A stretch of DNA of 64,000 nt from sequence record PP777464.1; one strand, written 5' to 3'. Each line of letters begins with the position of its first letter. The first letter of the stretch is position 1. The notes beneath the pieces are model-generated. The model saw only the letters and a list, made by a program, of their open reading frames with translations, was not told the origin of the DNA and ran no database searches. The DNA comes from Escherichia phage fEgEco12. Positions 2,747-20,789 of this stretch are shown here, piece after piece. The position numbers and the translations under genes were made by a program.

Positions 2747-3073
2747 ATGTTATCAGTTCTAATTTCAATTCCTGCTCTAATTCTTTTATGGGTTATGGTT
2801 TTCGAATTCTTCATTAAAGACGAAACCGAGCGTGATGAGTTTCGTGAGTTGTTTATGTTAGACTCACCCATTGCACGAATCTTCTTCGTTGTAGTACTTA
2901 TTTCAGTACTGTCATGGTTAGTAAGTTTTGTATTACCAATTGGACCATTTGTTTCAATTATGAATTTAGTTGAGAACATTGTTGGTATTGTGTGGTTTAC
3001 TAATGCATTGTTTGCTGGTAAAGTTTCCATTTGGTTTGATATCTTGAAAGATAAACTAACTAGTAAGAAGTAA
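2747..3073 (+). CDS. small membrane protein
   Basis: ATG with GAGGA RBS; hydrophobic segments. Confidence 0.5.
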   Translation: MLSVLISIPALILLWVMVFEFFIKDETERDEFRELFMLDSPIARIFFVVVLISVLSWLVSFVLPIGPFVSIMNLVENIVGIVWFTNALFAGKVSIWFDILKDKLTSKK

Positions 3074-3527: not shown

Positions 3528-3911
3528 ATGATAAACGATGTAATGCTTTATGTATTAATTACTCCGATTCTTATTAACTCAGTAATAACTATTTCAATGG
3601 CATTATTTGGTATAGTAGCAATTGTTTATGCTGTTAGTACTGGGAAGTATACTTTAATTAGTAAGGTTGATTCATGGTTCGCATCTGATAGTGTACCATA
3701 TTCAGCTAGTATGATTACGATTGGTATTCTAATCGTTGCATTTACACTGCACTGTATTGGTTTTATTAATACAAGTATTTTTTCAGTTTTTATTGGTCTA
3801 TCATTATATCCATCACTTTGGTACTTGATTTATGTAATCGATGTTTGGTATAATAACTACAAGCAGTACAAAGTGAAGAAATCCATTTTATCCAAAGGAA
3901 ACAAATCATGA
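3528..3911 (+). CDS. membrane protein (about 4 hydrophobic helices)
   Basis: ORF; strongly hydrophobic. Confidence 0.5.
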   Translation: MINDVMLYVLITPILINSVITISMALFGIVAIVYAVSTGKYTLISKVDSWFASDSVPYSASMITIGILIVAFTLHCIGFINTSIFSVFIGLSLYPSLWYLIYVIDVWYNNYKQYKVKKSILSKGNKS

Positions 3912-4509: not shown

Positions 4510-4950
4510 ATGTACGTATATCGTTTTGAACTTAAATTCAGTTATATTGAACCTAACTTAGATCCAGCAAAAACAGTAGGGCCGTTCGCACGGTACTCTT
4601 CACGATACAGTACTAAAAATGGATTTGACCGTTTGTGCATGACCACGCCTTCGCAATTCCAACCAGAACCAACTGAAGATGGAATCTATTCAATCAAACG
4701 TGGCTGGGCATTTGGCTGTCAGAGTTTGAATGATTTGTTTAAGTTCTTTACTATGGACTTGGGTAAATTACATCGTGCAGGGTTTGCTGTATCAGTATAT
4801 GAAGTTCCTGATAATCATGTTGACATTGGTCGTAGTCAAGTTCAGTACTATTGTGGTAGTGCCAATCTGGTTCGTATCATGTCAGTGAGAGAAGCAAAGG
4901 ATGAGTACCGCCAAAGTAAAAGAGTAATACATGAGGCTGTATATGGATAA
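4510..4950 (+). CDS. hypothetical protein (146 aa)
   Basis: ATG after conserved leader CATCAACTACTGGGG. Confidence 0.55.
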   Translation: MYVYRFELKFSYIEPNLDPAKTVGPFARYSSRYSTKNGFDRLCMTTPSQFQPEPTEDGIYSIKRGWAFGCQSLNDLFKFFTMDLGKLHRAGFAVSVYEVPDNHVDIGRSQVQYYCGSANLVRIMSVREAKDEYRQSKRVIHEAVYG

Positions 4951-5287
4951 GACACAAATAGAATTAAAAAAATTTGTATCGTTTTATCTACCCAATGACC
5001 CACGTTGTACACAATATGATGTTGCATATTACAATGCATTGACTACACAGTTAATGAAGAAATTCAAACAGTGTTTGACTGTATTCAATGATGATGGTAG
5101 ACGTAGATATAGAATCATTCCAATGAATGATGAAAACGATAACTACTTTGACTTTGATGTTGTTTTTCGAGCATACAATGATGATAGAATAAAATTAAAT
5201 TATGAGCAAATAATGCTTGACCTGAGTGTTATCTGTGTTATAATTACTCACATAGCCGAACTTGATGGTTTAAAAGAATGGTATTAA
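4931..5287 (+). CDS. hypothetical protein
   Basis: ORF; alternative ATG at 4943. Confidence 0.45.
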   Translation: MRLYMDKTQIELKKFVSFYLPNDPRCTQYDVAYYNALTTQLMKKFKQCLTVFNDDGRRRYRIIPMNDENDNYFDFDVVFRAYNDDRIKLNYEQIMLDLSVICVIITHIAELDGLKEWY

Positions 5288-6218: not shown

Positions 6219-6455
6219 ATGGAAACTATAATCATCATATGTGCGTTGTTTGCATTTTTGGTAATGTGGTCACCAACATTCATTGCATATAAAATGAAAA
6301 ATAAAAATGCAGAAGCAATTATGTACGTAAACTTATGTTGCATACTAACTTATGGAATACTTTTATTCTTTACTGAATTTACATTAATCCCAGTAGTAGT
6401 TTGTTCATCAATGTTTATTTGGTTGTTTCTGCTTTATGAATCTATTAAAAAATAA
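6219..6455 (+). CDS. small membrane protein
   Basis: ATG with GGAGG RBS; hydrophobic. Confidence 0.5.
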   Translation: METIIIICALFAFLVMWSPTFIAYKMKNKNAEAIMYVNLCCILTYGILLFFTEFTLIPVVVCSSMFIWLFLLYESIKK

Positions 6456-7577: not shown

Positions 7578-7650
7578 TTAAGTGTCTGTAGAAATAAACA
7601 GCACATGAAGTATAAATATTAAAGTAATTTATCTCTTTAAGGAGTATGAA

Positions 7651-8034
7651 ATGGTTGATAAATGGAATAAGAAAGATCCATCGCATGATGTGGATATTTC
7701 TGGAATTGATAATGCACATAAGCATAAGTATCTTGATTCACTAGGTCTACTAAAGCCTGACCAAAGTCTTGCACATGATCGTCCTTCACGTGAAAAAGCT
7801 TTCAGTCTAGAATCACTAGGTCATGAATTGAATCGTGTATTTGAAGATCATCCAATTTATGTACGTGATATCATTGAGAAACTTAAAGTGACTCCTAAAG
7901 AGCACTTCAAGGCAACAGTACACGCAGCATTCCGTGCACTACATGAAGCACTAAAGAAAACTCATAACCTTCGTAAGATTCATGATGATATCGTGAACTC
8001 TATTGAAGGTGAAAAACATAAGTTTAAAAAATAA
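7651..8034 (+). CDS. hypothetical protein with SLGLL motif
   Basis: ATG with AAGGAG RBS. Confidence 0.55.
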   Translation: MVDKWNKKDPSHDVDISGIDNAHKHKYLDSLGLLKPDQSLAHDRPSREKAFSLESLGHELNRVFEDHPIYVRDIIEKLKVTPKEHFKATVHAAFRALHEALKKTHNLRKIHDDIVNSIEGEKHKFKK

Positions 8035-8243: not shown

Positions 8244-8507
8244 ATGGCTGAAACATTATCACTATATGCGTTAGTACTGTTATTTGTCGGATTTCTTCCC
8301 GCACTCATTACAGCCATTCGTGTTGTTAAACATGAAGCTGCATTGATTGTATGTAGTATTGGGTCGAACATTCTATTGTATTTCTTTTTGACAAATACTA
8401 TTGTACTGTTTGCTTTCTTTATCATGATTCTGTGGGTACTTGTAATTCTCGGATTCTTCATTTGGTCATTGGTTGATCCTAAGAAAAAAACAGGAGAAGT
8501 GAAATGA
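8244..8507 (+). CDS. small membrane protein
   Basis: ORF; hydrophobic. Confidence 0.5.
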   Translation: MAETLSLYALVLLFVGFLPALITAIRVVKHEAALIVCSIGSNILLYFFLTNTIVLFAFFIMILWVLVILGFFIWSLVDPKKKTGEVK

Positions 8508-8852: not shown

Positions 8853-8881
8853 TATAAATATAGTCATAGAGAATAAACAAT

Positions 8882-10393
8882 ATGAAATCTATGGAGAGAA
8901 ATCAAATGCCAGGTCAATTTACTGATAAAAATGGCGGGAACATGGCAGGTCACTCTGATAAATGGAGTGAACGCAATCGTCGTCAAAATAGCTACCAAGC
9001 AGGACAGGGGTCACGTGGTTCACGTAATCAAGGGACAGGTTTAGCTGGTAAGGCAAACGCAGAAGCAGGTGAAGTTAAGAGTACTGAGAACATGACTGAG
9101 CTAGAAAAGCTACGTTATGTTAACTCATTAGGTCTTCTTAACGCAACACAGAAACAACGCCTTGCTGATATGGAACGTGCTGAGAAAGAACAAGCAGTTC
9201 CTAAAGAAGAACCAAAACCAGAAGCTCCTAAAGCAGCTAACCCTGTTAAAGAGTTATCTGATAACTTAGGTAAGATCTTTGCTAACAAACCACAGTTGAT
9301 TCAGGGTATTGTCAAAGCACTACAGGCAGTTCCTAAAGAAGAACTCAAAGGTAAAGCACAAGCTGTACTTGATGCAATGAAAGGTAATAAGAGCACTGAA
9401 CCTACTGAAGTATTCAGTACTATCATGCGTGCACTTGAAGGTACACACAAAGAAGATTCGAAAGAACCTGAACAGGGTGAAGCAAGTCTTGATGGTATTC
9501 TTAAAACTTTTGATAGTATTGGTAAAGCAGACCGTGCTAATGCCCAGCAAGTCAAGAATGTACTGGCTAAACTTGAAAACCGTTTAGAAGGTAAAGACGA
9601 TAAGGTTAAGCTCGTATCAGATGCAGTTAACAGTGCACTTAAATCTTATGTACAAGGTGAGAAAAGTCGCTTCGTAACAGCTATGGATGCTGCATTCAAC
9701 ACTATGAAAAAGTATGAAGCAGAACATGGTGAGAAAGTGACACCTGATGGATATCTACTACGTAAAGATGAAGAAGGTGCAGTTGAACAGAAAGATGTTG
9801 AGCCTGAGCAAGAAGATCTACCTGATACCGTTGATATGGATGGATACATTCATCGTCCTGAGATGGAAGAGTTTGGGTCAGATAAAGAAGGTTTTGAACA
9901 TGCAATGGCAGTATATAAAGCATTAGTTAAAAATCCAGATTATGCTAACCGTTTTGTTGACGAGTTTGATAGTGCATGGAATAACTATAAAGACAAAGGT
10001 TATGACTTCCCTGCTGAAGCTGCATTCTTTGAACTTGGTAAACTATTAGCTAAACATGGAATTGACGTTGGTTCATCTGATTCTGATGGTATGGAAGAAG
10101 AACATCTTGAAATGACTGATAAATCAATTCATGAACTTCAAAAGTTAATGATGTGGATATCCGAGATTGGTAAAAAAGCAGGTGCTGATAGTAAAAGTAT
10201 CAACAAAAATATTAGTTGGATTAAAGATAATGTTGGTAACAATGCTCGTAAACTTCAAAAGGCTTGGGCTGATTTAGTAAATGGTGCAGATGATGTTGAC
10301 ATTGAATCACCAGAAGCATATGAGTATGCACTAACTACACTTGATAACTCATTCAAAGAGTACGACCGTGGTGTTGGAAAGGATAAAAAATAA
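8882..10393 (+). CDS. large acidic/lysine-rich low-complexity protein with SLGLL motif
   Basis: longest ORF; better RBS (GGAGAG) favours ATG 8906. Confidence 0.6.
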   Translation: MKSMERNQMPGQFTDKNGGNMAGHSDKWSERNRRQNSYQAGQGSRGSRNQGTGLAGKANAEAGEVKSTENMTELEKLRYVNSLGLLNATQKQRLADMERAEKEQAVPKEEPKPEAPKAANPVKELSDNLGKIFANKPQLIQGIVKALQAVPKEELKGKAQAVLDAMKGNKSTEPTEVFSTIMRALEGTHKEDSKEPEQGEASLDGILKTFDSIGKADRANAQQVKNVLAKLENRLEGKDDKVKLVSDAVNSALKSYVQGEKSRFVTAMDAAFNTMKKYEAEHGEKVTPDGYLLRKDEEGAVEQKDVEPEQEDLPDTVDMDGYIHRPEMEEFGSDKEGFEHAMAVYKALVKNPDYANRFVDEFDSAWNNYKDKGYDFPAEAAFFELGKLLAKHGIDVGSSDSDGMEEEHLEMTDKSIHELQKLMMWISEIGKKAGADSKSINKNISWIKDNVGNNARKLQKAWADLVNGADDVDIESPEAYEYALTTLDNSFKEYDRGVGKDKK

Positions 10394-10464: not shown

Positions 10465-10716
10465 ATGTTTAAATATGTTTTATTTTCACTTGTATTGTTT
10501 ACTGATATAGTTTATAGTACTGAATACCAGTGCTCCATTGCTAGACAGGAGTTTAGAAACGGTGAGTTCTATACCAAGTCTTACACTAGAGGATTGGTAC
10601 ATGACAATAATAAAACTATAGGGTTCAATGCATTTGATAACAAAGATCGATATACGTCTGGAATACTATCTGAACGTAAGTCGGATGTAATAGGTATCGA
10701 GCATGAATTCCGGTGA
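10465..10716 (+). CDS. putative secreted small protein
   Basis: signal-like N-terminus. Confidence 0.5.
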   Translation: MFKYVLFSLVLFTDIVYSTEYQCSIARQEFRNGEFYTKSYTRGLVHDNNKTIGFNAFDNKDRYTSGILSERKSDVIGIEHEFR

Positions 10717-11077
10717 CACAGTTGCAATGTGTAATGATATTGAGAGTACTAAGAAAGTATATACTAATGGTGAAACTACCTTTAGATTCCACAATCTTAC
10801 TACTAATGAAAGTTTATACTTCTACAACTGTAAAGAGTTCATTAAACCTGTGGATAACTCATGTGATATGCCGGAGCCAAAAGCTGCTGTATGTGAGGAA
10901 CCACAATCCAAAGCTGACAAAGATTCAAAAGATAAGAAAGACAAAGCTGACAAATCGGATAAAAAAGAAAACAAAAAGAAAGCTAAAGATGATAAAGATA
11001 AAAAGTCCCCTAAGCCAAATCCATTTGAAAAGCCAAAGAATGAAAAGCCAAAACCAGACATGACATGTAAAATATAA
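10703..11077 (+). CDS. hypothetical protein with lysine/aspartate-rich C-terminal tail
   Basis: ORF; KDKKDKADKSDKK low-complexity tail. Confidence 0.5.
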   Translation: MNSGDTVAMCNDIESTKKVYTNGETTFRFHNLTTNESLYFYNCKEFIKPVDNSCDMPEPKAAVCEEPQSKADKDSKDKKDKADKSDKKENKKKAKDDKDKKSPKPNPFEKPKNEKPKPDMTCKI

Positions 11078-11084
11078 AAGAAAA

Positions 11085-11117
11085 GGGTTGACTTCGGTCG
11101 GCCCTTTTTGCTATAAT
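11085..11117 (+). terminator. composite terminator-promoter (GGGTTGACTTCGGTCGGCCC, TATAAT 11112-11117)
   Basis: hairpin family; conserved leader CATTTCATCAACTACTGGAGG follows. Confidence 0.7.
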
Positions 11118-11143: not shown

Positions 11144-11557
11144 ATGTTAAAAGTTATTTTCCGTTCTATCAGTTCATTACTTCTTATGATTAGTTCAGTT
11201 TGTTATGCAAATGAAGTATCTGATTTATTTGAGAAGAATTACCCAACTGCACAAGAGATGGGTGTTTTAAAATGCAAGCTAACTTCGTACAACATCATCG
11301 GCAGTAAACTTGTACTGGAACATGAACGTAGTACACCAATCCCTCTAGTGGAAGAAGGTAGTACCTTTAGCTTCAAGTACGGGGTGAATGTAACATCTGG
11401 TGTAATGAACAATGTTGATGCAGAGACTGGTTCAACATGGAGTACTAGCGGTAAAGATGTGTTTCATCGTATGCGTGAAAATGGTAAACTGAAGTACGTA
11501 TATGAAAGTTCATTCATGAAACGTGTATTCATTATAAAAAATTGTGTACCAGCATAA
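11144..11557 (+). CDS. putative secreted protein
   Basis: signal-like N-terminus; RBS GGAGG. Confidence 0.55.
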   Translation: MLKVIFRSISSLLLMISSVCYANEVSDLFEKNYPTAQEMGVLKCKLTSYNIIGSKLVLEHERSTPIPLVEEGSTFSFKYGVNVTSGVMNNVDAETGSTWSTSGKDVFHRMRENGKLKYVYESSFMKRVFIIKNCVPA

Positions 11558-11568
11558 GGAACAACATC

Positions 11569-11844
11569 ATGCGTTCATTTGAAAACTTAATCGGTAAACT
11601 TCGCTTACAAGAAATTGAAGCTGATGTGAAGGAATTATCTGAAACTAAGAGTTACATTCATTTAGATGAACTGTTTATTAAGTACGGTGAGATTGGTTTT
11701 AAGTCATTATTTGTGTTTGTCATGAAGGTGCATAGTTTAAAGTACTTTGATTTGAGTTCAAAAGACGGACAACCAAATCTGTATTACATGTATTATCTTA
11801 AGAACATAGACGAAGCTAATACATTATTCTTAGAATATATGTAG
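11569..11844 (+). CDS. hypothetical protein (91 aa)
   Basis: ATG with AAGGAAC RBS; track start 11542 is TTG. Confidence 0.5.
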   Translation: MRSFENLIGKLRLQEIEADVKELSETKSYIHLDELFIKYGEIGFKSLFVFVMKVHSLKYFDLSSKDGQPNLYYMYYLKNIDEANTLFLEYM

Positions 11845-11853
11845 GGGTAAAAA

Positions 11854-12192
11854 ATGGAACAACATTTTGAATTAATTAATAAGGTATCATTTTATGTAGT
11901 ATCGTTAATTTGGGTGTATTACATGTTTTGTTACATTATTGCATTCTTCCGATACACGACCTTGTATCAACGCATATACTACGATGCACCAATTTCATTT
12001 TTGATGTTCAGTGCATGTACGTGGGGGATAATTGAAGCACTGGCATGTGGATATAGTACGGACGAATTAAATCTCGTATCGGTGTTGACATTACTAACAA
12101 TTGCTACTATGATAGCTACAGTTCCGATATTTTTGCTCTTTAAACTGCTTCATCGCATCGATGAGTGGCGTAATAAAATCCCTGAAAAGTAA
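11854..12192 (+). CDS. small 3-helix membrane protein, paralog family
   Basis: hydrophobic; C-terminal R..KIPE-type tail. Confidence 0.55.
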   Translation: MEQHFELINKVSFYVVSLIWVYYMFCYIIAFFRYTTLYQRIYYDAPISFLMFSACTWGIIEALACGYSTDELNLVSVLTLLTIATMIATVPIFLLFKLLHRIDEWRNKIPEK

Positions 12193-12201
12193 GGATTGAT
12201 A

Positions 12202-12543
12202 ATGATTTTTTACACTAATGCGTTTGCTTATGCCGTTGCATCAATCTACATTGTGTACTTCTTATTTGGTGGAGTACTGTACTTCTTTAAGTACAAAACA
12301 TTGTTTAACCGAATGTATCCAAATCATCCAATTGTAGTAGTACTTTTGATTATTTCTGTTGCTCACATCATTGTAGAAACAATAATGGGTATTAGTGCAG
12401 TACATTACAGTCTAGGTACTATTGTGATTATTACTATGATCATCGCATACATTTTAGTAATGGGTTCTGGTTTATTTGGGAATGTAGCAATGAAATTGTA
12501 TAATCGAATTAAAACCTTACGTGATAATCTACCGGAGCGTTGA
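12202..12543 (+). CDS. small 3-helix membrane protein, paralog family
   Basis: ATG with AAGGA RBS; track start 12196 is TTG. Confidence 0.55.
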   Translation: MIFYTNAFAYAVASIYIVYFLFGGVLYFFKYKTLFNRMYPNHPIVVVLLIISVAHIIVETIMGISAVHYSLGTIVIITMIIAYILVMGSGLFGNVAMKLYNRIKTLRDNLPER

Positions 12544-12544
12544 G

Positions 12545-12889
12545 ATGTATAATTTAAATTTAATCTCATATATCATAACAACACTGTTTACTTTCTATAC
12601 CTTTGTTGGTATACTCCTACTGTACTTTAAATTTTATAAACTCTTTGACCGTTTATATCCATCATTGGAACATGAATTCTTATTGGTGATGTACATCTGT
12701 TTAACGTGTATGTCTACATTTTTCACTGTATTTGATGGTATCATCGGTATTAAAGCTGAAGATCCAAATGGTAGTACACTTGTTGCCTTTATCCTGGTAG
12801 GATTCTTCGGTACTTATATCACTTTCATTTCAACATGGTCTGTGGTTGATTATCTCATTAGATTACGAGATAAAATGCCAAATCGATAG
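12545..12889 (+). CDS. small 3-helix membrane protein, paralog family
   Basis: ATG with GGAG RBS; track start 12521 is GTG. Confidence 0.55.
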   Translation: MYNLNLISYIITTLFTFYTFVGILLLYFKFYKLFDRLYPSLEHEFLLVMYICLTCMSTFFTVFDGIIGIKAEDPNGSTLVAFILVGFFGTYITFISTWSVVDYLIRLRDKMPNR

Positions 12890-12898
12890 GGGGTTGCT

Positions 12899-13156
12899 AT
12901 GTTTGCATTGCGTAATAAAAATACAAAAGAGATTCTATGTATCTCAACAGTATGGGATTGTGCAGGAAGTGAAATGATTCTCGAAGAAGGTTCAGGTGAT
13001 TGTGTTTATGTTGTTCAGGATCGTCGCGAACTGGAATCATTACTTGACGAATTTAATGCTGGTGGAAATCCTAAAAGTACTCAATTCCCTGAGATCAGGA
13101 ATCCAGCACCACCAGGCTCTTATGAAATTCTACAACTGTGGGAGATGGATAAGTAA
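12899..13156 (+). CDS. hypothetical protein (85 aa)
   Basis: ATG ORF. Confidence 0.5.
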   Translation: MFALRNKNTKEILCISTVWDCAGSEMILEEGSGDCVYVVQDRRELESLLDEFNAGGNPKSTQFPEIRNPAPPGSYEILQLWEMDK

Positions 13157-13536
13157 TGCGTCAAATGCACAAAGTAACCGAGCTAAACAAGCGTCTGATT
13201 AAACAATCAATGTTTGAGGATAAAGAGTCTTACTATAACTTCAAACGTGCTGTAGAGGCTGCTATCCACATTCAGAAGCTTAAAGATAGTGGATGTATTA
13301 TTCTCGAAAATGGTTCTGACGTTGTTACTGATGACTTCAGTGTAGCGTTTGATGTTTCACCTGATGGTTCGCTATCAATGCCACGCTTAGGGACTGGTGA
13401 CATGACTGTGTGGGTAGGTTTCACTATGGGGAATGTACCAGGTACGGTGTATGTAGATGATGCTGAGTTGAAAGAAAGCTTCAAAAACTTATCGCATCTT
13501 GAACCACAATACGCACATGAAATGAATTTATTTTGA
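13156..13536 (+). CDS. hypothetical protein (126 aa)
   Basis: stop/start overlap. Confidence 0.5.
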   Translation: MRQMHKVTELNKRLIKQSMFEDKESYYNFKRAVEAAIHIQKLKDSGCIILENGSDVVTDDFSVAFDVSPDGSLSMPRLGTGDMTVWVGFTMGNVPGTVYVDDAELKESFKNLSHLEPQYAHEMNLF

Positions 13537-13537
13537 G

Positions 13538-13595
13538 TTGACAAACTCATTCAGTACTGTATAATGTTTATCAAGGGGATGAACTTCTCATCCCC
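13538..13595 (+). promoter_or_regulatory. sigma70-like promoter with leader hairpin
   Basis: TTGACA 13538-13543, TATAAT 13560-13565, hairpin GGGGATGAACTTCTCATCCCC. Confidence 0.6.
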
Positions 13596-13612
13596 ACAAT
13601 CGAGGAATTGTC

Positions 13613-14167
13613 ATGATTACTTTTAAGAAAACTGCTAACCACATCCATGAGATCTACATTAACGGTCACAAAGCTGGCCTTCTTCGTTTACTCGCCCATC
13701 ATCCGAATATTACCGTATCTGATAATGAACCTAAAGATTGGCGTGTATTTTTCTTTGGAAAGTACAGTGATTTTCAAGTATCAAACCTGAAGAACATTCG
13801 TTCAGTATGCACGTTAACTGAAATTAAAGAAAAGTTAACCAAAGCATTGAAAACTAATCCAGATAGTGTTCTTCCACCTGATAACTTTGTAGAGAAAGGA
13901 TATGCCTTAGCTCATTTCAAAGATGGTACTATTCAATCTATCAGTACTGAATATGAATATCAATGGACTGAGTACTTCACTTATGGATCGCGTAATACAT
14001 TGATGGCTTCACGTAGTAAATTGGAAGAAGTACTGACTCGTATGAATGAACGCGAGCGTCAATTTTATGACAAACCAGAAATGTGGAGTTCAACTTACAT
14101 TGACCGTATTGACTATGTTATTATGACTCCAATCTTTGACACTGCTTACTATGATTCTTTGAAATAA
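13613..14167 (+). CDS. hypothetical protein (184 aa)
   Basis: ATG with GAGGAA RBS. Confidence 0.55.
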   Translation: MITFKKTANHIHEIYINGHKAGLLRLLAHHPNITVSDNEPKDWRVFFFGKYSDFQVSNLKNIRSVCTLTEIKEKLTKALKTNPDSVLPPDNFVEKGYALAHFKDGTIQSISTEYEYQWTEYFTYGSRNTLMASRSKLEEVLTRMNERERQFYDKPEMWSSTYIDRIDYVIMTPIFDTAYYDSLK

Positions 14168-14178
14168 GGATAACTTAT

Positions 14179-14355
14179 ATGAAACTACGTACTCGTAATC
14201 GACTGATGGATGCACTGTACCATGAACAGCTTTCACTGAATGAAGTGAAGCGACAGTTAATGTACACATATCTGTTACCCGCTCGCATTGCAAAACAACG
14301 TGCTAAAGAATTGCTGAAAGAAGCAATCGAGTACTGGGAATCTGATTCGTACTAA
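14179..14355 (+). CDS. hypothetical small protein (58 aa)
   Basis: ATG with AAGGA RBS; below track cutoff. Confidence 0.4.
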   Translation: MKLRTRNRLMDALYHEQLSLNEVKRQLMYTYLLPARIAKQRAKELLKEAIEYWESDSY

Positions 14356-14383
14356 TTGTCACGTTAATTAAGTGAGGCGATAA

Positions 14384-14635
14384 ATGAAAATTTTATTAGT
14401 TCTAATACTACTAATTGTTTTACCATTTACGTTAGTATCCCCTGAACTTGCATGGAATGTGTTTGTGTACTTACTATGTACTATTGTAGTAAATGGTATC
14501 TTGTTCTTAGTTCTATTCATAAATGGAATAGGACACGGTGGAGGATGGACCAGTACTGCTGATATTGTACATAAAACCACTATGTCTTTATTTGTAGTGT
14601 GGAATTTATTCTGGACTTGGTTTGTGTTCTTCTAA
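14384..14635 (+). CDS. small membrane protein
   Basis: RBS GTGAGG; hydrophobic. Confidence 0.5.
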   Translation: MKILLVLILLIVLPFTLVSPELAWNVFVYLLCTIVVNGILFLVLFINGIGHGGGWTSTADIVHKTTMSLFVVWNLFWTWFVFF

Positions 14636-14644
14636 TTAAAAAAT

Positions 14645-15016
14645 ATGAATATAGATTTGAAAGGTGCAACACGAACTGTCATACTCATTGGGGAATATGC
14701 TATCAAGATTCCAACCTTTAAAAGTTGGAAGCTATTCTTAACAGGGATGATAGCTAACCTCAATGAACGTTCGTGGATGCAGTACTCCAAGCGTAGTAAT
14801 AGTGGTATCTGCCCTACGTTGTGGTCATCATGTACTGGACTAGTAACTGTACAGAAGCGTTGTAAGCCAGTGCAACATAGGGGTTTATTTTGGGTGGAGT
14901 TGTGTGCTTTAGCATTGGATTCAGAGTTAAGTACTGACTTCTTCTATTCAGATGCGAAGCCAGAAAACTTTGGGTATCTGTGTGGTAAGTTGGTTAAACT
15001 TGATTATGGAGATTAA
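14645..15016 (+). CDS. hypothetical protein (123 aa)
   Basis: ATG ORF. Confidence 0.5.
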   Translation: MNIDLKGATRTVILIGEYAIKIPTFKSWKLFLTGMIANLNERSWMQYSKRSNSGICPTLWSSCTGLVTVQKRCKPVQHRGLFWVELCALALDSELSTDFFYSDAKPENFGYLCGKLVKLDYGD

Positions 15017-15017
15017 T

Positions 15018-15287
15018 ATGTACGCATTGTATAATAAAGAAAAGAAACGATTTGCTAAGGTTGAAATTTCGATTGATACATTTGACATGTTGGAGTACTG
15101 TATTGTAACGGATTTATATGCTAACTTGTATTACGTTCTTGATGACGTATCAGTACTGCAACGATTGCTTGAGAATTCCAAAAGTCAATGCCAGGGCATC
15201 CATGATGGTTCATCTTATGAAACACCTGAGTGTTCCTACGGCTATCTGGACGGGTATGAGATTGTGAAGTTGGGGATTGTTGAATAA
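15018..15287 (+). CDS. hypothetical protein (89 aa)
   Basis: ATG with GGAG RBS; track start 14952 overlaps the upstream gene. Confidence 0.45.
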   Translation: MYALYNKEKKRFAKVEISIDTFDMLEYCIVTDLYANLYYVLDDVSVLQRLLENSKSQCQGIHDGSSYETPECSYGYLDGYEIVKLGIVE

Positions 15288-15299
15288 ATGGATTAAACA

Positions 15300-15713
15300 A
15301 TGAAGAAGTGTATCACGTGTAATATTGAAAAAGACATTAGTGAATTTGGTATAAGAAAAGATACTGGGAAACATAGAAATACATGCAAAGGTTGTAGTAA
15401 TATTACCAGTAAGAAAACCAGAAATAAAAAAACTGATGTCAAAAAACTTGAAGAAATCAAAAGAAAAAATAAAGATTTCATGACCAGAGTTAAATCATTT
15501 TATGGTTGTAGTATTTGCATGATGAAGTATCCAGAATGTTTAGACTTTCACCATCTTGATCCTAATACCAAAGAACATACACCAAGTTCTATGTTCAGTA
15601 AAAGTCGAGAATCTATCAAAGATGAAATTCGAAAGTGTATGATTCTTTGTTCTAATCACCATCGCATGGTACATTCTGGTAGACTATGTTTGATTGAAAG
15701 AAAAAAGGGTTGA
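15300..15713 (+). CDS. HNH-family endonuclease (putative homing endonuclease)
   Basis: paired CxxC motifs and DFHHLDP...N...CSNHHRMVH His-Asn-His signature. Confidence 0.65.
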   Translation: MKKCITCNIEKDISEFGIRKDTGKHRNTCKGCSNITSKKTRNKKTDVKKLEEIKRKNKDFMTRVKSFYGCSICMMKYPECLDFHHLDPNTKEHTPSSMFSKSRESIKDEIRKCMILCSNHHRMVHSGRLCLIERKKG

Positions 15714-15739
15714 CTTCGGTCAGCCCTTTTTGCTATAAT
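15707..15739 (+). terminator. composite terminator-promoter (GGGTTGACTTCGGTCAGCCC, TATAAT 15734-15739)
   Basis: hairpin overlaps the HNH stop codon. Confidence 0.7.
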
Positions 15740-15767
15740 CATTTCATCGAAACGAGAGGATGAATAC

Positions 15768-16283
15768 ATGACACGCATTAACTTAGTACACGTTAAAGAA
15801 CTTGCTGACCAACATCTGATGGCTGAATATCGTGAACTCCCACGTGTGTTTGGTGCTGTACAAAAACATGTTCAAGCACGTAAGCGAGTCCGTGATTTCA
15901 AAATTAACAGTACTTATCTGTTAGGTTCAGGTCATGTAACATTCTTCTACGACAAGTTATTGTACTTACAGAAGCGTCATATTGAAATTGTTAACGAATG
16001 TTTGCGTCGTGGGATGAAGATTCAAAACACTGAAGTAAACGACATTAGCGGCATCCCTGCTGAGTTTTGTAATGACTACGCACCATCGGAGTCAGAGATT
16101 AAAATGTCTCGTGAGCGTTTGATTGAGAAGCTCCAGATGAAGCCTACTTGGTATAAATTTACTGACGTTGAACGCCCAGAGTACGTTAAAGATATGCAGG
16201 ACGTAAGTAGTAATATAGAATCTAGTACTGATATGTTCGACGAAATTGAAGAACAAATCAAAGATGAAATGAATAATTATTAA
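15768..16283 (+). CDS. denV: pyrimidine dimer DNA glycosylase (T4 endonuclease V homolog) with C-terminal acidic extension
   Basis: N-terminal block [30 protein letters not shown]...KRVRDFKI.....[12 protein letters not shown] matches my recollection of T4 endo V. Confidence 0.85.
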
Positions 16284-16289
16284 AGGAAA

Positions 16290-16322
16290 GGGTTGACTTC
16301 GGTCAGCCCTTTTTGCTATAAT
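16290..16322 (+). terminator. composite terminator-promoter (GGGTTGACTTCGGTCAGCCC, TATAAT 16317-16322)
   Basis: hairpin family. Confidence 0.7.
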
Positions 16323-16350
16323 TATTTCATCAACTGATGAGGATAACGAA

Positions 16351-17121
16351 ATGACCAGAGAAGCACGTAGCATTCAAATCCAGAAAAACTTCAACTCCAT
16401 GATGGTTGCTCTTGAGTGTTTGCTCGACGATAGCAGTACTGTAAAAAGTATGGTTGTCAGCGGTGCACCTGGTGTTGGTAAGACTTACACCCTGTCACAA
16501 CGCCTCCAGAAAGCTCATGACGCAGCAGAATGGAACGTAGCCACTATCAGTGGTAAGATGACTACTCTTGCTCTGTATGAAGTTCTGTACAAGAATCGTC
16601 ACAGCACTAATGTATTAGTACTGGATGATATGGACAGCATCTTTGATTCAGAAGACGGTATGAACCTGCTCAAAGCAGTACTGGACAGTGGTAAACGTAC
16701 TGTGTCTTACATGACTAGCTCTAAGTACTTAACTACCAACGGTATCCCTAACAGCTTTGATTTTAACGGTCGTATCGTATTCATTACTAACAAAGATTTA
16801 GCACTGAATGCTAAAGCTAAAACCAAAATGTCTGCTCACTATGCTGCTCTTATGTCTCGCTCTGTGTATGTTGACTTACAGATCCAGACTAAAAGCGATA
16901 TCATGATTCACATTGAAAACGTAATGAACAAGACCAACATCCTGTCAACTAAAGGTGTTAATAGTAATGGTAGCAAAGCAATCCTGAATTGGATGCTGAA
17001 ACATGAAGATGCACTTCGTGCTCCTTCACTGCGTATGCCTCTGTTGATTTCAGCAGTATACAACAACAACCCGTATGATTGGGAAGAGCAGTGCGAAAAC
17101 TTGTTCCTTGAGAAAATTTAA
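16351..17121 (+). CDS. P-loop NTPase (Walker A GAPGVGKT, Walker B VLVLDD)
   Basis: Walker A and B motifs. Confidence 0.65.
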   Translation: MTREARSIQIQKNFNSMMVALECLLDDSSTVKSMVVSGAPGVGKTYTLSQRLQKAHDAAEWNVATISGKMTTLALYEVLYKNRHSTNVLVLDDMDSIFDSEDGMNLLKAVLDSGKRTVSYMTSSKYLTTNGIPNSFDFNGRIVFITNKDLALNAKAKTKMSAHYAALMSRSVYVDLQIQTKSDIMIHIENVMNKTNILSTKGVNSNGSKAILNWMLKHEDALRAPSLRMPLLISAVYNNNPYDWEEQCENLFLEKI

Positions 17122-17130
17122 TTACATGTA

Positions 17131-17160
17131 TTGACAGTACTACCATAGTGTAGTACTATA
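17131..17160 (+). promoter_or_regulatory. candidate promoter TTGACA-17-TACTAT
   Basis: TTGACA 17131-17136. Confidence 0.4.
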
Positions 17161-17188
17161 ACTTAATATTCACCACCGGAGATACGAT

Positions 17189-17527
17189 ATGCTTGAGTTT
17201 TTTAATTCAGATACAATGCTTAGTATTACTTTGATTTATCTATTTGGTTTTTTCTTTTATCATGCACTAGTTGTAGTACTATGGTATTTTAAAAAGAAAA
17301 TCGTTTTCAAACTGTATCCTGATGGAAACATTTCACTACTTCTTTTCACTATTATCCAAGGTATGTTTGCAATTGTTGGTCTTATCGCACACTTAATTTA
17401 TTGTGCTAATCCACAGTTGAACTCAATATCACAATATATTGTATTCCTTGGATTACTAATTTGGGTGCTGATATACTTGTTTAATCTCATTATTAATGGT
17501 AGAGCAAAAATTCGTGGGGACTTCTAA
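17189..17527 (+). CDS. small 3-helix membrane protein, paralog family
   Basis: RBS GGAG; hydrophobic; basic C-terminal tail. Confidence 0.55.
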   Translation: MLEFFNSDTMLSITLIYLFGFFFYHALVVVLWYFKKKIVFKLYPDGNISLLLFTIIQGMFAIVGLIAHLIYCANPQLNSISQYIVFLGLLIWVLIYLFNLIINGRAKIRGDF

Positions 17528-17874
17528 TGTTTGAATCTTATCTTGAGTTTTTAAAGAGTAGTTCTGTTGCACATTCAATTGCAGGGATTATTCTAACAGG
17601 TTATGTAACATTTTGGGTGGTTATGTTTCTAGGATGGTATTTTAAACGACAATTCTATAAGCGTAATGGTGAAGATTTTATGAATTCTGTTATTAATCAA
17701 TCGTTGTTTGCATCAACATTGATAGCATGTATTGTAGCAACACTCACAGGAAAGGTACTGCCAGCATTCTCCGCAGTTTACGGTACATTGGGTATGATAT
17801 GTGTAGTTTTTTACTTGACCATTAAACTTTGTTGTGTTATGATTGACCTTCGAAACAAGATACCGGAGGAATGA
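17527..17874 (+). CDS. small 3-helix membrane protein, paralog family
   Basis: stop/start overlap; tail DLRNKIPEE. Confidence 0.55.
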   Translation: MFESYLEFLKSSSVAHSIAGIILTGYVTFWVVMFLGWYFKRQFYKRNGEDFMNSVINQSLFASTLIACIVATLTGKVLPAFSAVYGTLGMICVVFYLTIKLCCVMIDLRNKIPEE

Positions 17875-18209
17875 TGGAATATTTTTTACACTTACTGCCG
17901 TGGTATATGAAAGTTAGTACTATGTACTATATTCTTAGTGCTGGATTCTACTTTCTGATGTGGTTCTTCAAACGACCAATTTCAGTATTCATCTCTGATA
18001 ACATGCTGCAATTAAAATTACACGCATGGTTTTTTATGGCGATGTTTATGCCTATTATTCACTACTCAATGATTAGTAGAGGTTTACGTTCTAATGGTGA
18101 ACCAATTATATTAGTATTCTATTGGGGTTCAACTATTGCATATGTAAGTTTGTTGTTGATCCCAGCCGTTCATAAATTACGTGCTAAAGTTCCTGATGCG
18201 AGGTACTAA
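17871..18209 (+). CDS. small 3-helix membrane protein, paralog family
   Basis: ATGA overlap. Confidence 0.55.
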   Translation: MMEYFLHLLPWYMKVSTMYYILSAGFYFLMWFFKRPISVFISDNMLQLKLHAWFFMAMFMPIIHYSMISRGLRSNGEPIILVFYWGSTIAYVSLLLIPAVHKLRAKVPDARY

Positions 18210-18523
18210 TGGATATCGTAACATTGATTTACACGCTTTATTCATTCTATTTTATTATGTGTTGGGTTGGATTTTTATTTGTATTGAAGATGTTTGATTA
18301 TGTTGAAAAACAGATAAAAGAATTTTGTATTCCTTTTATTGGGTCAACCATAATTAGTATTACTTGTTTGTATTATTTGGTATGTGATCCACCTGTTAAT
18401 ACAGCAATGATTGACTTCATGTTATTACCAACAACTGTTATTTTTTTATGTAGTCTGATGCCACCGATTAGTCGTGGGCTAACCGAATTTAGACGCAATC
18501 AAAAGCGTAAACGAGGGATGTGA
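18209..18523 (+). CDS. small membrane protein, paralog family
   Basis: stop/start overlap. Confidence 0.5.
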   Translation: MDIVTLIYTLYSFYFIMCWVGFLFVLKMFDYVEKQIKEFCIPFIGSTIISITCLYYLVCDPPVNTAMIDFMLLPTTVIFLCSLMPPISRGLTEFRRNQKRKRGM

Positions 18524-18891
18524 TGGAAATTGCACTTATTATATTAACTGCTATGTTGTTTATTAGTACAATTGTTATTATTGGCAAGTTCTTCTGTGTA
18601 TCCTTCTTGGAAACCGTATACGATGAAATTGCTGATGATTATGAATTACATGCGGGATTTTTTACTACGTATTGGATTAGTTTATTACTACTTATCACTG
18701 TATGGATTTTACATATATTCAAATGGGGTATGGTAGATGGTGATCCAGTACTGGCAATTATCTGTGTAGTGTTTGGTCTACTCGGTGGTGCTGTCCATAA
18801 TCTGATGGTAATTTGGCAAACCGTACAATATGTATTAGTTCCACATTTTCAGAGAATGCACCAAAGCATCAAATACCGCAAACGAGGATAA
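18523..18891 (+). CDS. small membrane protein, paralog family
   Basis: ATG with GAGGG RBS; track start 18520 is GTG. Confidence 0.5.
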   Translation: MEIALIILTAMLFISTIVIIGKFFCVSFLETVYDEIADDYELHAGFFTTYWISLLLLITVWILHIFKWGMVDGDPVLAIICVVFGLLGGAVHNLMVIWQTVQYVLVPHFQRMHQSIKYRKRG

Positions 18892-18892
18892 C

Positions 18893-19255
18893 ATGAATAA
18901 TATTGAATTATCTTTTATTGGTCAATTAATGGTAATGGCGTATACATTTATCTTCTCACTGAATGCATTCGTGTGCATTGGGAAGTACTTCCATAAGCGA
19001 CCATTATCAAATATATATGATGTAATACAAAGGAGATATAGTCCAGCATATACTGTGTTGAGTACAGCATTCAATTTTGGTTTTATTCTAATGCTGGTTG
19101 CATTATTAACATCGAGTTCGAATTTTATAACATTTGGTATTATGGTATGTTCACTAACACTGTGTGTGGTTATTCTCTGTGCATCCGTTGAGTTGCTGGC
19201 ATGGATGTATAATAAGATTTCCGAAATCCATGAGCGTTTAGGTAAGAGGAACTAA
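18893..19255 (+). CDS. small membrane protein, paralog family
   Basis: RBS GAGGA. Confidence 0.5.
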   Translation: MNNIELSFIGQLMVMAYTFIFSLNAFVCIGKYFHKRPLSNIYDVIQRRYSPAYTVLSTAFNFGFILMLVALLTSSSNFITFGIMVCSLTLCVVILCASVELLAWMYNKISEIHERLGKRN

Positions 19256-19256
19256 A

Positions 19257-19628
19257 ATGAGTTATCGTGAAATATTTTCGATCATTACTATTATTGTGTT
19301 TAGTTTAGGTTCTTTGATTTGGTTATTGTATTACTTCTGTGTAACCCCAGTATATAATATGCTAAATTCAGTTCGCTCTGATGTTGGTATTGTTTCTTTT
19401 ATTATCTTCATGACATATTATATGCTAAGTATCACAGGTTTGGTTTTGGTTGTTATCTTTGACCTTGGACCGAATCAAGATGGCATGGAGATGTGGGAAT
19501 TGATAACGATGTTTGCATGTATGATACCTGCATTTGGTGTATGTGCTGGTGTATTTTATGGGTTGTGTAAAGGTGTGAACTACTTAAAAAATATCCACAA
19601 TACTATTCGTAAAAAACGTATGTTATAA
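19257..19628 (+). CDS. small membrane protein, paralog family
   Basis: RBS AAGAGGA. Confidence 0.5.
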   Translation: MSYREIFSIITIIVFSLGSLIWLLYYFCVTPVYNMLNSVRSDVGIVSFIIFMTYYMLSITGLVLVVIFDLGPNQDGMEMWELITMFACMIPAFGVCAGVFYGLCKGVNYLKNIHNTIRKKRML

Positions 19629-19632
19629 TAAA

Positions 19633-19660
19633 AAATCCAGTACTATAATAGTACTGGATT
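19633..19660. terminator. bidirectional terminator hairpin (ATCCAGTACTATAATAGTACTGGAT) between convergent genes
   Basis: perfect inverted repeat flanked by A/T runs between + gene end 19628 and - gene end 19665. Confidence 0.7.
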
Positions 19661-19664
19661 AATT

Positions 19665-20789
19665 TTAATTATCTAAGCCACCAATTACACTGAACTGTGT
19701 GGTAACGTCTGAACTATTATCTATGTAAGTTCTTCTACCAACATAATATAGTTGTCCTTTTGCTTGAATAAAAGTTACGGTCCCTGTATTGAATGTTATA
19801 ATATCATTGTATGTAATGTCAGGTGGTAGTGCTGCTGATAACGCAGTAACTTTACTTAATGCAGCACTAGTACTACCATTTATACCAGCAGCAATACTAC
19901 CAGTACCATAGAACTTATTATCTTTACCAATGAATACGTTGGCTGATGCTTGTGTAGCTGATGTTATTGCCTTACCAATTTGGAATGCGGTTCCTATGGT
20001 GTATGGTGTGCTCCTGGCTGCGTCTATGCTTTGTGTATATCCATCCCCTAGCTGACCATTAACTTTGTCACCACATGAGTATAGAGTACCATTGAGGCTG
20101 TATATGATCCCACGGTTAGAGAAGCTAACAGCTTCTGCATTAGTCCATACTGGTGCGGTGTATGAGTTTACACGACTAGCGGTAGTTCCTAGACCTAGTA
20201 TACCATATGTGTTATCACCACATCCAAACCATTGTCCAGAACTGTTTTGATAGAACACTGAACGTTCTGTTGATTCCATGCGTACAGCATCCACAGCACC
20301 ACTTTTAACGAACGAAGTTGATGAGGATGTAGTACCAGTACCCAATGCACCATAAGTGTTTGTACCAATCGCATAGATTGATCCTAGTGGTGTCATAACA
20401 CGTATGCAGTTATATCCCAATTGAACTTTACATTCAAATAGGTTGTCCCATATTTCAGGAACAGCAGAAAATAAATTTGTAATTTCGAACCATGATGTTG
20501 TCGAATCAGTTAATCCAATACTGCTTTTGTTTCCTAAAATGAAAACAGTTTTGTCCTTCTTAATTATCCATGATGATAGGAAACCTATCTCACAGCTATG
20601 AACATTTGATTCTATTTGGGTAATATAATACTTAACTGTGTTATCACCCATGAATGCCGCAGCACCGGATGCAAAAAGGTTTCCAGTTTGTTTATTTAAA
20701 ATGTAGTTATTGTTTCCATATACACTAACATCATAAGAACTTTCTTGTTTTTCGTTCCCATAATCAAATAACAATACGAAAGGTAACAT
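19665..20789 (-). CDS. RCC1-like repeat protein, array member 1 (leader MLPFVLLFDYGN)
   Basis: repeated G.N..GQLGDG-type motifs; shared N-terminal leader. Confidence 0.75.
   Translation of the reverse strand: MLPFVLLFDYGNEKQESSYDVSVYGNNNYILNKQTGNLFASGAAAFMGDNTVKYYITQIESNVHSCEIGFLSSWIIKKDKTVFILGNKSSIGLTDSTTSWFEITNLFSAVPEIWDNLFECKVQLGYNCIRVMTPLGSIYAIGTNTYGALGTGTTSSSTSFVKSGAVDAVRMESTERSVFYQNSSGQWFGCGDNTYGILGLGTTASRVNSYTAPVWTNAEAVSFSNRGIIYSLNGTLYSCGDKVNGQLGDGYTQSIDAARSTPYTIGTAFQIGKAITSATQASANVFIGKDNKFYGTGSIAAGINGSTSAALSKVTALSAALPPDITYNDIITFNTGTVTFIQAKGQLYYVGRRTYIDNSSDVTTQFSVIGGLDN

Follow-up and report, generated by a model that had tools for sequence, protein, structure and literature searches.

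Two clusters of small membrane-protein genes in phage fEgEco12

The stretch analysed here, referred to as the window, comprises 64,000 nucleotides of Escherichia phage fEgEco12 (PP777464.1), and the genes in question lie in two clusters on its plus strand, three in cluster A (A1–A3) and seven in cluster B (B1–B7). All ten open reading frames (ORFs) named in a preliminary description of this DNA were found at the coordinates below and code for proteins of 104–123 aa. As had been proposed, each protein contains three hydrophobic segments (10/10, Kyte-Doolittle); in B3 the first two transmembrane (TM) segments, TM1 and TM2, were weakly hydrophobic (1.35–1.42). Between positions 11500 and 20000 the sequence showed 98.9% identity to Escherichia phage EC.P1 and about 90% identity to phages 121Q, PBECO4 and phAPEC6, all of which are Asteriusvirus jumbo myoviruses of about 350 kb, and the window thus belongs to a 121Q-like coliphage. 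In each GenBank record examined, all genes of both clusters are labelled 'hypothetical protein'; the phAPEC6 record has unannotated gaps (4742–5108 and 13992–14343) where orthologs of B6 and A1 are expected. The lengths of A2 and A3 were counted from the ATG starts used by annotators and homologs, and types I and II refer to the motifs described in the next section.

11854–12192, plus strand: A1, 112 aa, three TM segments, type I (FFRY ... WRNKIPEK), phrog_19285
12202–12543, plus strand: A2, 113 aa from ATG 12202 (TTG 12196 possible), type I (YFFKY ... LRDNLPER)
12545–12889, plus strand: A3, 114 aa from ATG 12545 (longest ORF from GTG 12521), type I (YFKF ... LRDKMPNR)
17189–17527, plus strand: B1, 112 aa, type I variant (WYFKK ... 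GRAKIRGDF)
17527–17874, plus strand: B2, 115 aa, type I (WYFKR ... LRNKIPEE), hub of the similarity network
17871–18209, plus strand: B3, 112 aa, type I (WFFKR ... LRAKVPDARY)
18209–18523, plus strand: B4, 104 aa, most divergent member (FLFVLK ... FRRNQKRKRGM), recruited in late iterations only
18523–18891, plus strand: B5, 122 aa from ATG 18523 (GTG 18520 possible), type II (KFFCV ... MHQSIKYRKRG)
18893–19255, plus strand: B6, 120 aa, type II (KYFHK ... IHERLGKRN)
19257–19628, plus strand: B7, 123 aa, type II (YYFCV ... IHNTIRKKRML)

All ten genes showed dN/dS values of 0.1–0.5 against their orthologs (Nei-Gojobori), indicating purifying selection, and we therefore consider the ORFs to be real genes. 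Each cluster had been described as a translationally coupled operon. This was clear for cluster B, in which consecutive genes are spaced by −1, −4, −1, −4, +1 and +1 nt; the genes of cluster A are tightly packed (9 and 1 nt) with no overlap.

The ten proteins form one superfamily with shared signatures

Since direct pairwise phmmer comparisons were convincing only for A1–A2–A3, B1–B2 and B5 with B6 or B7, homology was tested by profiles. Subfamily profiles were built from positional orthologs of phages WPEC3, ph0011, 121Q, A4, JNE01 and SD-1_S14 together with database matches and compared all-versus-all with hhalign, and profiles of reversed sequences, which leave composition and hydrophobic pattern unchanged, served as controls. 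Among the type I profiles, hhalign probabilities were 97–98% for A1–A2–A3, 93% for A3–B1, 95% for B2–B3, 66–75% for B2–A1 and 53–83% for B2–A3; further values were 72–90% for B5–B6, 78–87% for B5–B7, 29–55% for B2–B6 and at most 49% for B3–B5. B4 had no significant direct link to any one subfamily profile. The reversed-profile controls reached a maximum of 6.6%, and the paralogy suspected earlier is thus beyond chance, with a chain of subfamily matches up to 93–98%. An iterative hidden Markov model (HMM) search from seed B2 converged at 132 sequences, all ten window proteins among them (B4 entered at round 7), and recruited no decoy even at E ≤ 10; every recruited ORF lay at a cluster A or cluster B position, and six other small membrane ORFs of the window were not recruited. 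T4 nrdC.7, nrdC.9 and rI proved unrelated to the superfamily when compared. On the basis of these sequence comparisons, the ten proteins are one superfamily, whose subfamilies are linked as a connected chain.

All ten share a length of about 100–130 aa, three TM segments, a phenylalanine at the end of TM1 and a basic C-terminal helix. The phenylalanine, located at the cytoplasmic end of TM1 (F39 in B2), was invariant (132 of 132 sequences). Type I proteins (A1–A3 and B1–B3) combine a WFFK motif with an LRxKIPxR tail and type II proteins (B5–B7) an FF[CH]V motif with an HxxIxx[KR] tail; the outlier B4 lacks both tail motifs and keeps the phenylalanine and the basic tail. A basic C-terminal tail had been reported for these proteins and was confirmed, with a net charge between 0 and +6 in the final 20 residues, and the R..K(I/V)PE-like ending said to be frequent was recovered in part, a strict R-x-[KN]-[IVLM]-P being present in five of the ten (A1, A2, A3, B2 and B3). 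B1 carries the variant tail RAKIRGDF, and B4–B7 end in a terminal Lys/Arg cluster, preceded in B5–B7 by the His-containing motif.

The predicted cytoplasmic segments (loop 1 and C-tail) contained on average 7.1 Lys and Arg residues versus 0.9 in the N-tail and loop 2, a rule that holds for 124 of 124 members, and because of this bias a three-TM topology with the N-terminus outside and the C-terminus inside (N-out/C-in) is predicted. AlphaFold2 models of B2 and B5 (predicted local distance difference test scores, pLDDT, of 75.7 and 75.2) had a common layout: TM1, a short cytoplasmic helix, TM2, and a TM3 that continues into a long C-terminal helix. Topology prediction and alignment, proposed as a check in the preliminary description, therefore gave three TM segments and related sequences; neither a lack of TM helices nor unrelated sequences was found.

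In most members the last codons (CCGGAG, CGAGGA, AGAGGA and similar) also serve the downstream gene as Shine-Dalgarno sequence, at the following positions:

12529–12536, 17861–17870, 18194–18206, 18508–18519, 18879–18888 and 19243–19252: overlaps of Shine-Dalgarno sequence and C-terminal codons, for example CCGGAGGA before B3 and CGAGGA before B6

The E, R and G residues at the very end of the proteins are therefore subject to a dual coding constraint and may owe part of their identity to the nucleotide sequence. That the C-terminal motif is a mere by-product of the Shine-Dalgarno sequence may hold for the final two to three residues and was rejected for the RxKxP core, which we regard as a protein-level motif because its distance to the C-terminus varies (1–7 residues) and because it is also present in genes that are last in their cluster.

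The double use of the terminal P-E and R-G codons, together with the weak direct E-values between many of the ten proteins and the lack of a significant single-profile link for B4, could be taken to mean that these are unrelated hydrophobic ORFs of the same size that resemble each other in composition only, or that the ORFs are not genes. This reading is effectively refuted by the low scores of the reversed controls, the absence of HMM matches to decoys, the other small TM ORFs left unrecruited, the phenylalanine present in every recruited sequence and dN/dS below 0.5. Moreover, [WY][YF]F[KR] and RxKxP were absent from all 458 non-family ORFs of the pool (458/458), and the position of RxKxP is not fixed to the downstream start.

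Distribution, genomic address and copy number

None of the ten proteins gave a match above threshold in Pfam, NCBIfam or PADLOC (the sole match among the PADLOC defence profiles was to a generic 2TM effector, E = 0.084), and fold comparisons gave no informative match. Nine of the ten fell into seven PHROGs of unknown function (19285, 19454, 19046, 27396, 33258, 26405 and 27618) and B6 into none; these PHROGs are separate unannotated families in the database and are joined here into one superfamily. A word-indexed search of 5.8 billion clusters returned 28 matches to the ten-protein profile and 17 to that of type II, and an exhaustive hmmsearch of 1.84 billion representatives returned 22 matches of 89–119 aa, which aligned end-to-end and kept both type I motifs. 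All placeable matches came from Asteriusvirus, Alcyoneusvirus or similar contigs of jumbo-phage size (Rak2-like), and a scan of IMG/VR found 121Q itself only. The members are confined to phages of Enterobacterales, and as judged from these searches the superfamily is restricted to the Rak2-like jumbo-phage clade.

Early small membrane proteins of phages and paralog families of jumbo phages are general phenomena that are already known. The literature searched, including reports of the RaK2, CBB, phAPEC6 and Sharanji genomes and a jumbo-phage review from 2026, held no discussion of the genes described here, and we consider the superfamily, its signatures, its address behind nrdC.10 and its array organisation, none of which is in Pfam or was found in that literature, to be previously unrecognised. 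Few phage genes are as poorly understood as those for small early membrane proteins, and hundreds of jumbo-phage genes are uncharacterised; at least seven separate PHROGs of unknown function and additional unannotated ORFs are now merged into one defined superfamily with signatures, a predicted topology and a conserved address.

That address is defined by the gene directly before cluster B:

16351–17121, plus strand: NrdC.10-like AAA/P-loop ATPase, 256 aa, T4 NrdC.10 homolog

The order ATPase-then-array was found in each lineage examined, namely Asteriusvirus, Alcyoneusvirus (RaK2), Eneladusvirus and the contigs L010, L011 and L012. Cluster A is a second, separate array that does not adjoin the ATPase gene and lies 4 kb off in another operon. 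In RaK2 the array consists of collinear orthologs of B2 (two copies), B1, B3, B4, B5 and B7 and one extra member; in an Eneladusvirus phage the ATPase gene is followed by five or six three-TM proteins with KRGK-type tails, and in L011 by twelve consecutive family-sized genes, of which the subfamily profiles identified seven as type I and then four as type II. Superfamily copies per genome range from about 5 to about 12, with duplicates of B1 in 121Q and ph0011 and of B4 in JNE01, and with a cluster A of between one gene (A4) and four (JNE01). T4-like and PA5oct-like phages have NrdC.10 and no such array. The preliminary description called ten paralogs unusual; this has to be qualified, as about 10% of the genes of RaK2-type phages have been reported to be paralogous (PMC3622015) and related phages hold 5–12 copies of the superfamily.

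The arrangement bears on the main functional alternative, one that the preliminary description did not raise, in which a single hetero-oligomeric complex of the inner membrane, serving as channel, scaffold or anchoring platform, would be built from the proteins as non-redundant subunits and would be needed for the clade's own cycle, perhaps together with the NrdC.10-like ATPase. The nearly unchanged gene order in RaK2, the sequence of type I before type II also in L011, the ATPase-then-array order in Asteriusvirus, Alcyoneusvirus, Eneladusvirus and two uncultivated contigs, the overlapping stop and start codons in cluster B, which favour co-translation at a fixed ratio, and purifying selection all fit such a complex, whereas the shifting copy number, the distance and separate operon of cluster A, and the phages that have NrdC.10 without the array are difficult to reconcile with it.

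Promoters and expression timing

The following signals were predicted around the clusters:

11088–11117, plus strand: sigma70-type promoter, TTGACT-18-TATAAT with extended −10 TG, 11/12 match; heads the operon 11144–13536 that holds cluster A
17131–17159, plus strand: sigma70-type promoter, TTGACA-17-TACTAT, in the 67-nt spacer before B1
19634–19660, bidirectional: terminator-like hairpin with a 12-bp stem, at the shared end of cluster B and the convergent RCC1-like gene

A late promoter motif of the T4 type, TATAAATA, has been proposed for the clade (PMC5259590). The window has 2 copies of it where 13.6 would be expected, a strong depletion, and both sites (7611–7618 and 8853–8860) are located just upstream of ORFs (7651–8034 and 8882–10393, respectively) related to virion proteins: the first ORF shares 95% identity with the phAPEC6 virion protein gp037c, and the second corresponds to the virion-detected gp035c by position and by the annotation 'virion structural protein' in WPEC3. 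Depletion and placement before virion-protein genes are consistent with use of TATAAATA as a late promoter. The motif was not found at cluster A or cluster B, and with a predicted sigma70-type promoter before each of them the early-type operons assumed in the preliminary description were upheld. From promoter prediction, we infer that clusters A and B would be expressed early. Among the 62 virion proteins of phAPEC6 identified by mass spectrometry, none was an ortholog of the cluster proteins (gp012c–gp017c and gp028c–gp029c; PMC7247149), a negative that carries little weight because small hydrophobic proteins are hard to detect; a virion role for the cluster proteins is not supported.

Holin and antiholin functions had been among the roles suggested for these genes. 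Class I holins of the lambda S105 type are proteins of about 105–120 aa with three TM segments, N-out/C-in topology and a basic cytoplasmic C-terminus. The superfamily shares with them its size, the three TM segments and, by prediction, the N-out/C-in orientation and the charged basic cytoplasmic C-terminus, so the proteins might act as holins, antiholins or lysis-timing proteins for the signal-arrest-release (SAR) type endolysin of the clade. In line with this possibility, RaK2-type phages have no assigned holin (PMC3622015), and the predicted SAR-type endolysin would need a membrane-depolarising partner (PMC5259590). However, a class I holin is encoded by one late, dual-start gene, whereas the superfamily consists of 5–12 diverged paralogs with early-type promoters, and the late motif missing near the clusters does precede late virion genes of the same window. 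The predicted SAR endolysin of the clade, 121Q gp532, is encoded far from the clusters (gp207–232 in 121Q; PMC5259590), and neither sequence or HMM similarity of the ten proteins to class I holins nor a match to a holin Pfam (E ≤ 1) or a holin PHROG family was detected, all PHROG matches being of 'unknown function'. Ten copies made from the onset of infection are also hard to square with a lethal, timed function. Because of the early-type promoters, the missing late motif, a SAR endolysin gene that is not linked to the clusters and the copy number, we disfavour the holin and antiholin option and regard it as very improbable.

The clusters lie in hypervariable segments

Compared with JNE01 or A4, the proteins encoded at 13613–16283 were 94–100% identical, whereas identities fell to 27–42% for A1–A3 and 29–65% for B1–B7, with saturated dS; the clusters are thus embedded in hypervariable segments bordering on a block that is nearly identical. 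Within this block, the small multi-TM ORF at 14384–14635 is 96–100% conserved across the genus, unlike the clusters. The ATPase gene exists as two deeply diverged alleles in the genus, that of the window being 96% identical to those of 121Q and A4 and about 60% identical to those of WPEC3, ph0011 and JNE01. These alleles do not co-vary with cluster B (96% for the ATPase versus 29–65% for cluster B in A4, and 60% versus 92–100% in WPEC3) but assort independently of the adjacent membrane-protein alleles, which places a recombination breakpoint in the 67-nt promoter spacer. Likewise, the ranking of genomes by B2 identity differs from that by B4 identity, pointing to recombination inside the array. 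In divergent orthologs, the N-tail, TM1 and loop 1 were about 50% identical and TM2, loop 2 and TM3 28–38%.

B4, intact in about 40 of 42 genomes, was also found in nine Klebsiella phages. In 121Q (10485–10800) it is annotated as two ORFs, gp228 and gp229, from one extra T. The candidate reading that some members are dispensable, prompted by this split, was rejected, as the split amounts to a single additional T in a T-run and B4 is intact nearly everywhere else.

The retention of B4 adds to the points in favour of a hetero-oligomeric complex, and the independent assortment of B2 and B4 alleles, like that of the ATPase alleles and cluster B, to those against it; a co-evolving partnership with the NrdC.10-like ATPase is made less likely by the same lack of co-variation and by the T4-like and PA5oct-like phages, in which the ATPase occurs without the array. 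We consider such a complex somewhat unlikely. If it existed, the genes would encode a clade-defining membrane machine of Rak2-like jumbo phages.

The same divergence bears on the possibility that the proteins are host-takeover factors, each of which would bind a host inner-membrane protein (a transporter, a protease such as FtsH, a divisome or respiratory component) early in infection, inhibit or redirect it, and thereby reshape cell physiology for a very large phage. A T7-gp0.7-like kinase gene lies immediately upstream of cluster A in 121Q and phAPEC6, and this early-gene setting, the early sigma70-type promoters, the limitation of the family to phages of Enterobacterales, and the conserved cytoplasmic motifs (the invariant phenylalanine and RxKxP), which would suit a conserved host partner, are all compatible with it. 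Conserved host targets would, however, make a divergence between allele types down to 27–65% identity unexpected, and no family matches were found; we judge this explanation unlikely.

A tentative role in membrane-level conflict

The reading that we tentatively favour, and hold to be possible rather than probable, is that the proteins are specificity variants which, from within the inner membrane, counter rival phages or host defences that act on membranes, in a manner resembling exclusion or immunity. It is preferred because of the predicted early expression, the hypervariable setting, the changes in copy number, the independent assortment of B2 and B4 alleles and the variable TM2–TM3 hairpin. 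Exclusion or immunity-type roles, also suggested in the preliminary description, are plausible in that they fit early expression and a hypervariable setting. For this favoured reading we infer localisation, timing and the whole functional mechanism as follows. Tandem duplication would have produced the array behind the NrdC.10-like ATPase gene in Rak2-like jumbo phages, and the proteins would be inserted into the host inner membrane soon after infection, with the N-terminus in the periplasm and the basic C-terminal helix in the cytoplasm. The paralog set would then supply specificity variants in a membrane-level conflict, each paralog neutralising a different threat, for instance the machinery by which a superinfecting phage forms channels or brings in its DNA, or a pore-forming host effector of abortive infection. 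The variable TM2-loop-TM3 hairpin would mediate binding by contacts between helices inside the bilayer, and the invariant phenylalanine and the basic residues at the cytoplasmic face could form a shared surface for anchoring or partner binding.

Several observations weigh against specificity variants. The flanking non-membrane genes at 11144, 12899, 19665 and 20867 are variable too. The paralogs are kept in collinear order between Asteriusvirus and Alcyoneusvirus, and this retention and the intact B4 fit non-redundant subunits at least as well as interchangeable variants. With dS saturated between allele types, the divergence may stem from an old exchange of cassettes and not from rapid adaptation, and the low identity of TM2 and TM3 may mean only weak sequence constraint on TM helices. 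In addition, none of the ten proteins matched HMMs of Imm, Sie-type, holin, defence or anti-defence proteins, and the fold comparisons were likewise uninformative.

Known membrane proteins offer partial parallels. T4 Imm (PF14373), a protein of about 83 aa, and other superinfection-exclusion proteins resemble the superfamily in being small, early (by prediction for the superfamily) inner-membrane proteins of a large lytic myovirus, and a role at the DNA-entry site is plausible. Imm differs in size and TM count and is encoded by one conserved gene in place of a hypervariable set of paralogs; no match to PF14373 was obtained at E ≤ 1 for any of the ten. Immunity proteins of E1-type pore-forming colicins are three-TM inner-membrane proteins of about 100–115 aa with specificity in their TM helices, and bacterial toxin loci may carry tandem arrays of diverged orphan immunity paralogs. 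The likeness to these systems is one of analogy, and the TM2–TM3 hairpin is the most variable part of the superfamily proteins; the superfamily differs from the colicin immunity proteins in being phage-encoded with no adjacent toxin, and no sequence similarity to colicin immunity was found in the Pfam scan of the ten. By this analogy, cluster organisation can be likened to that of bacterial orphan-immunity arrays, and the locus might confer 'poly-immunity', each three-TM paralog binding a different pore- or channel-forming attacker in the bilayer (abortive-infection effectors or the DNA-entry channels of rivals). We think this extended version doubtful and put it forward as speculation. If true, the early operon would shield the host membrane broadly through the long infection by a jumbo phage, and the proteins would define a new class of anti-defence or exclusion factors that sit in the membrane. 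More generally, membrane-level exclusion or counter-defence would make the superfamily a new, compact source of specificity-diverse membrane inhibitors, and relatives that infect E. coli K-12 (Sharanji and slurp01) open both this reading and that of a complex to experiment.

Neighbouring genes and other small ORFs

The neighbours of the clusters are denV, an HNH endonuclease gene, the NrdC.10-like ATPase gene and an RCC1-like gene. The HNH gene (15300–15713) is situated between the ORF at 14952–15287 and denV in the window and in WPEC3 and is missing there in 121Q; because of its absence from that site in 121Q, it is probably a mobile homing-endonuclease insertion. Right after cluster B, on the minus strand and convergent with it, an array of RCC1-repeat ('regulator of chromosome condensation') paralogs extends from 19665 to about 26000, coordinates beyond 20789 being extrapolated from the WPEC3 annotation. 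Its first gene (19665–20789) showed just 24–30% identity between allele types. The phAPEC6 orthologs of this array, gp003–gp010, were virion-associated by mass spectrometry (PMC7247149).

Further small membrane-protein ORFs of the window lie outside the superfamily. Three three-TM ORFs of 78–87 aa (2446–2688, 6219–6455 and 8244–8507) have a common P-x-[LF]-[IV]-A...K motif; a weak relationship links those at 2446 and 6219 (E about 2e-4 among six sequences), and the latter had a sub-threshold match to Imm_superinfect (PF14373, E = 0.014), so that the three may be distant Imm-like proteins. The small multi-TM ORFs at 2747–3073, 3528–3911 and 14384–14635 belong to phrog_31401 and phrog_31707, both of unknown function. 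Just upstream of the promoter of the cluster A operon, the ORF at 10703–11077 has a long Lys/Asp-rich C-terminal half of low complexity (KDKKDKADKSDKKENKKKAKDDKDKK...).

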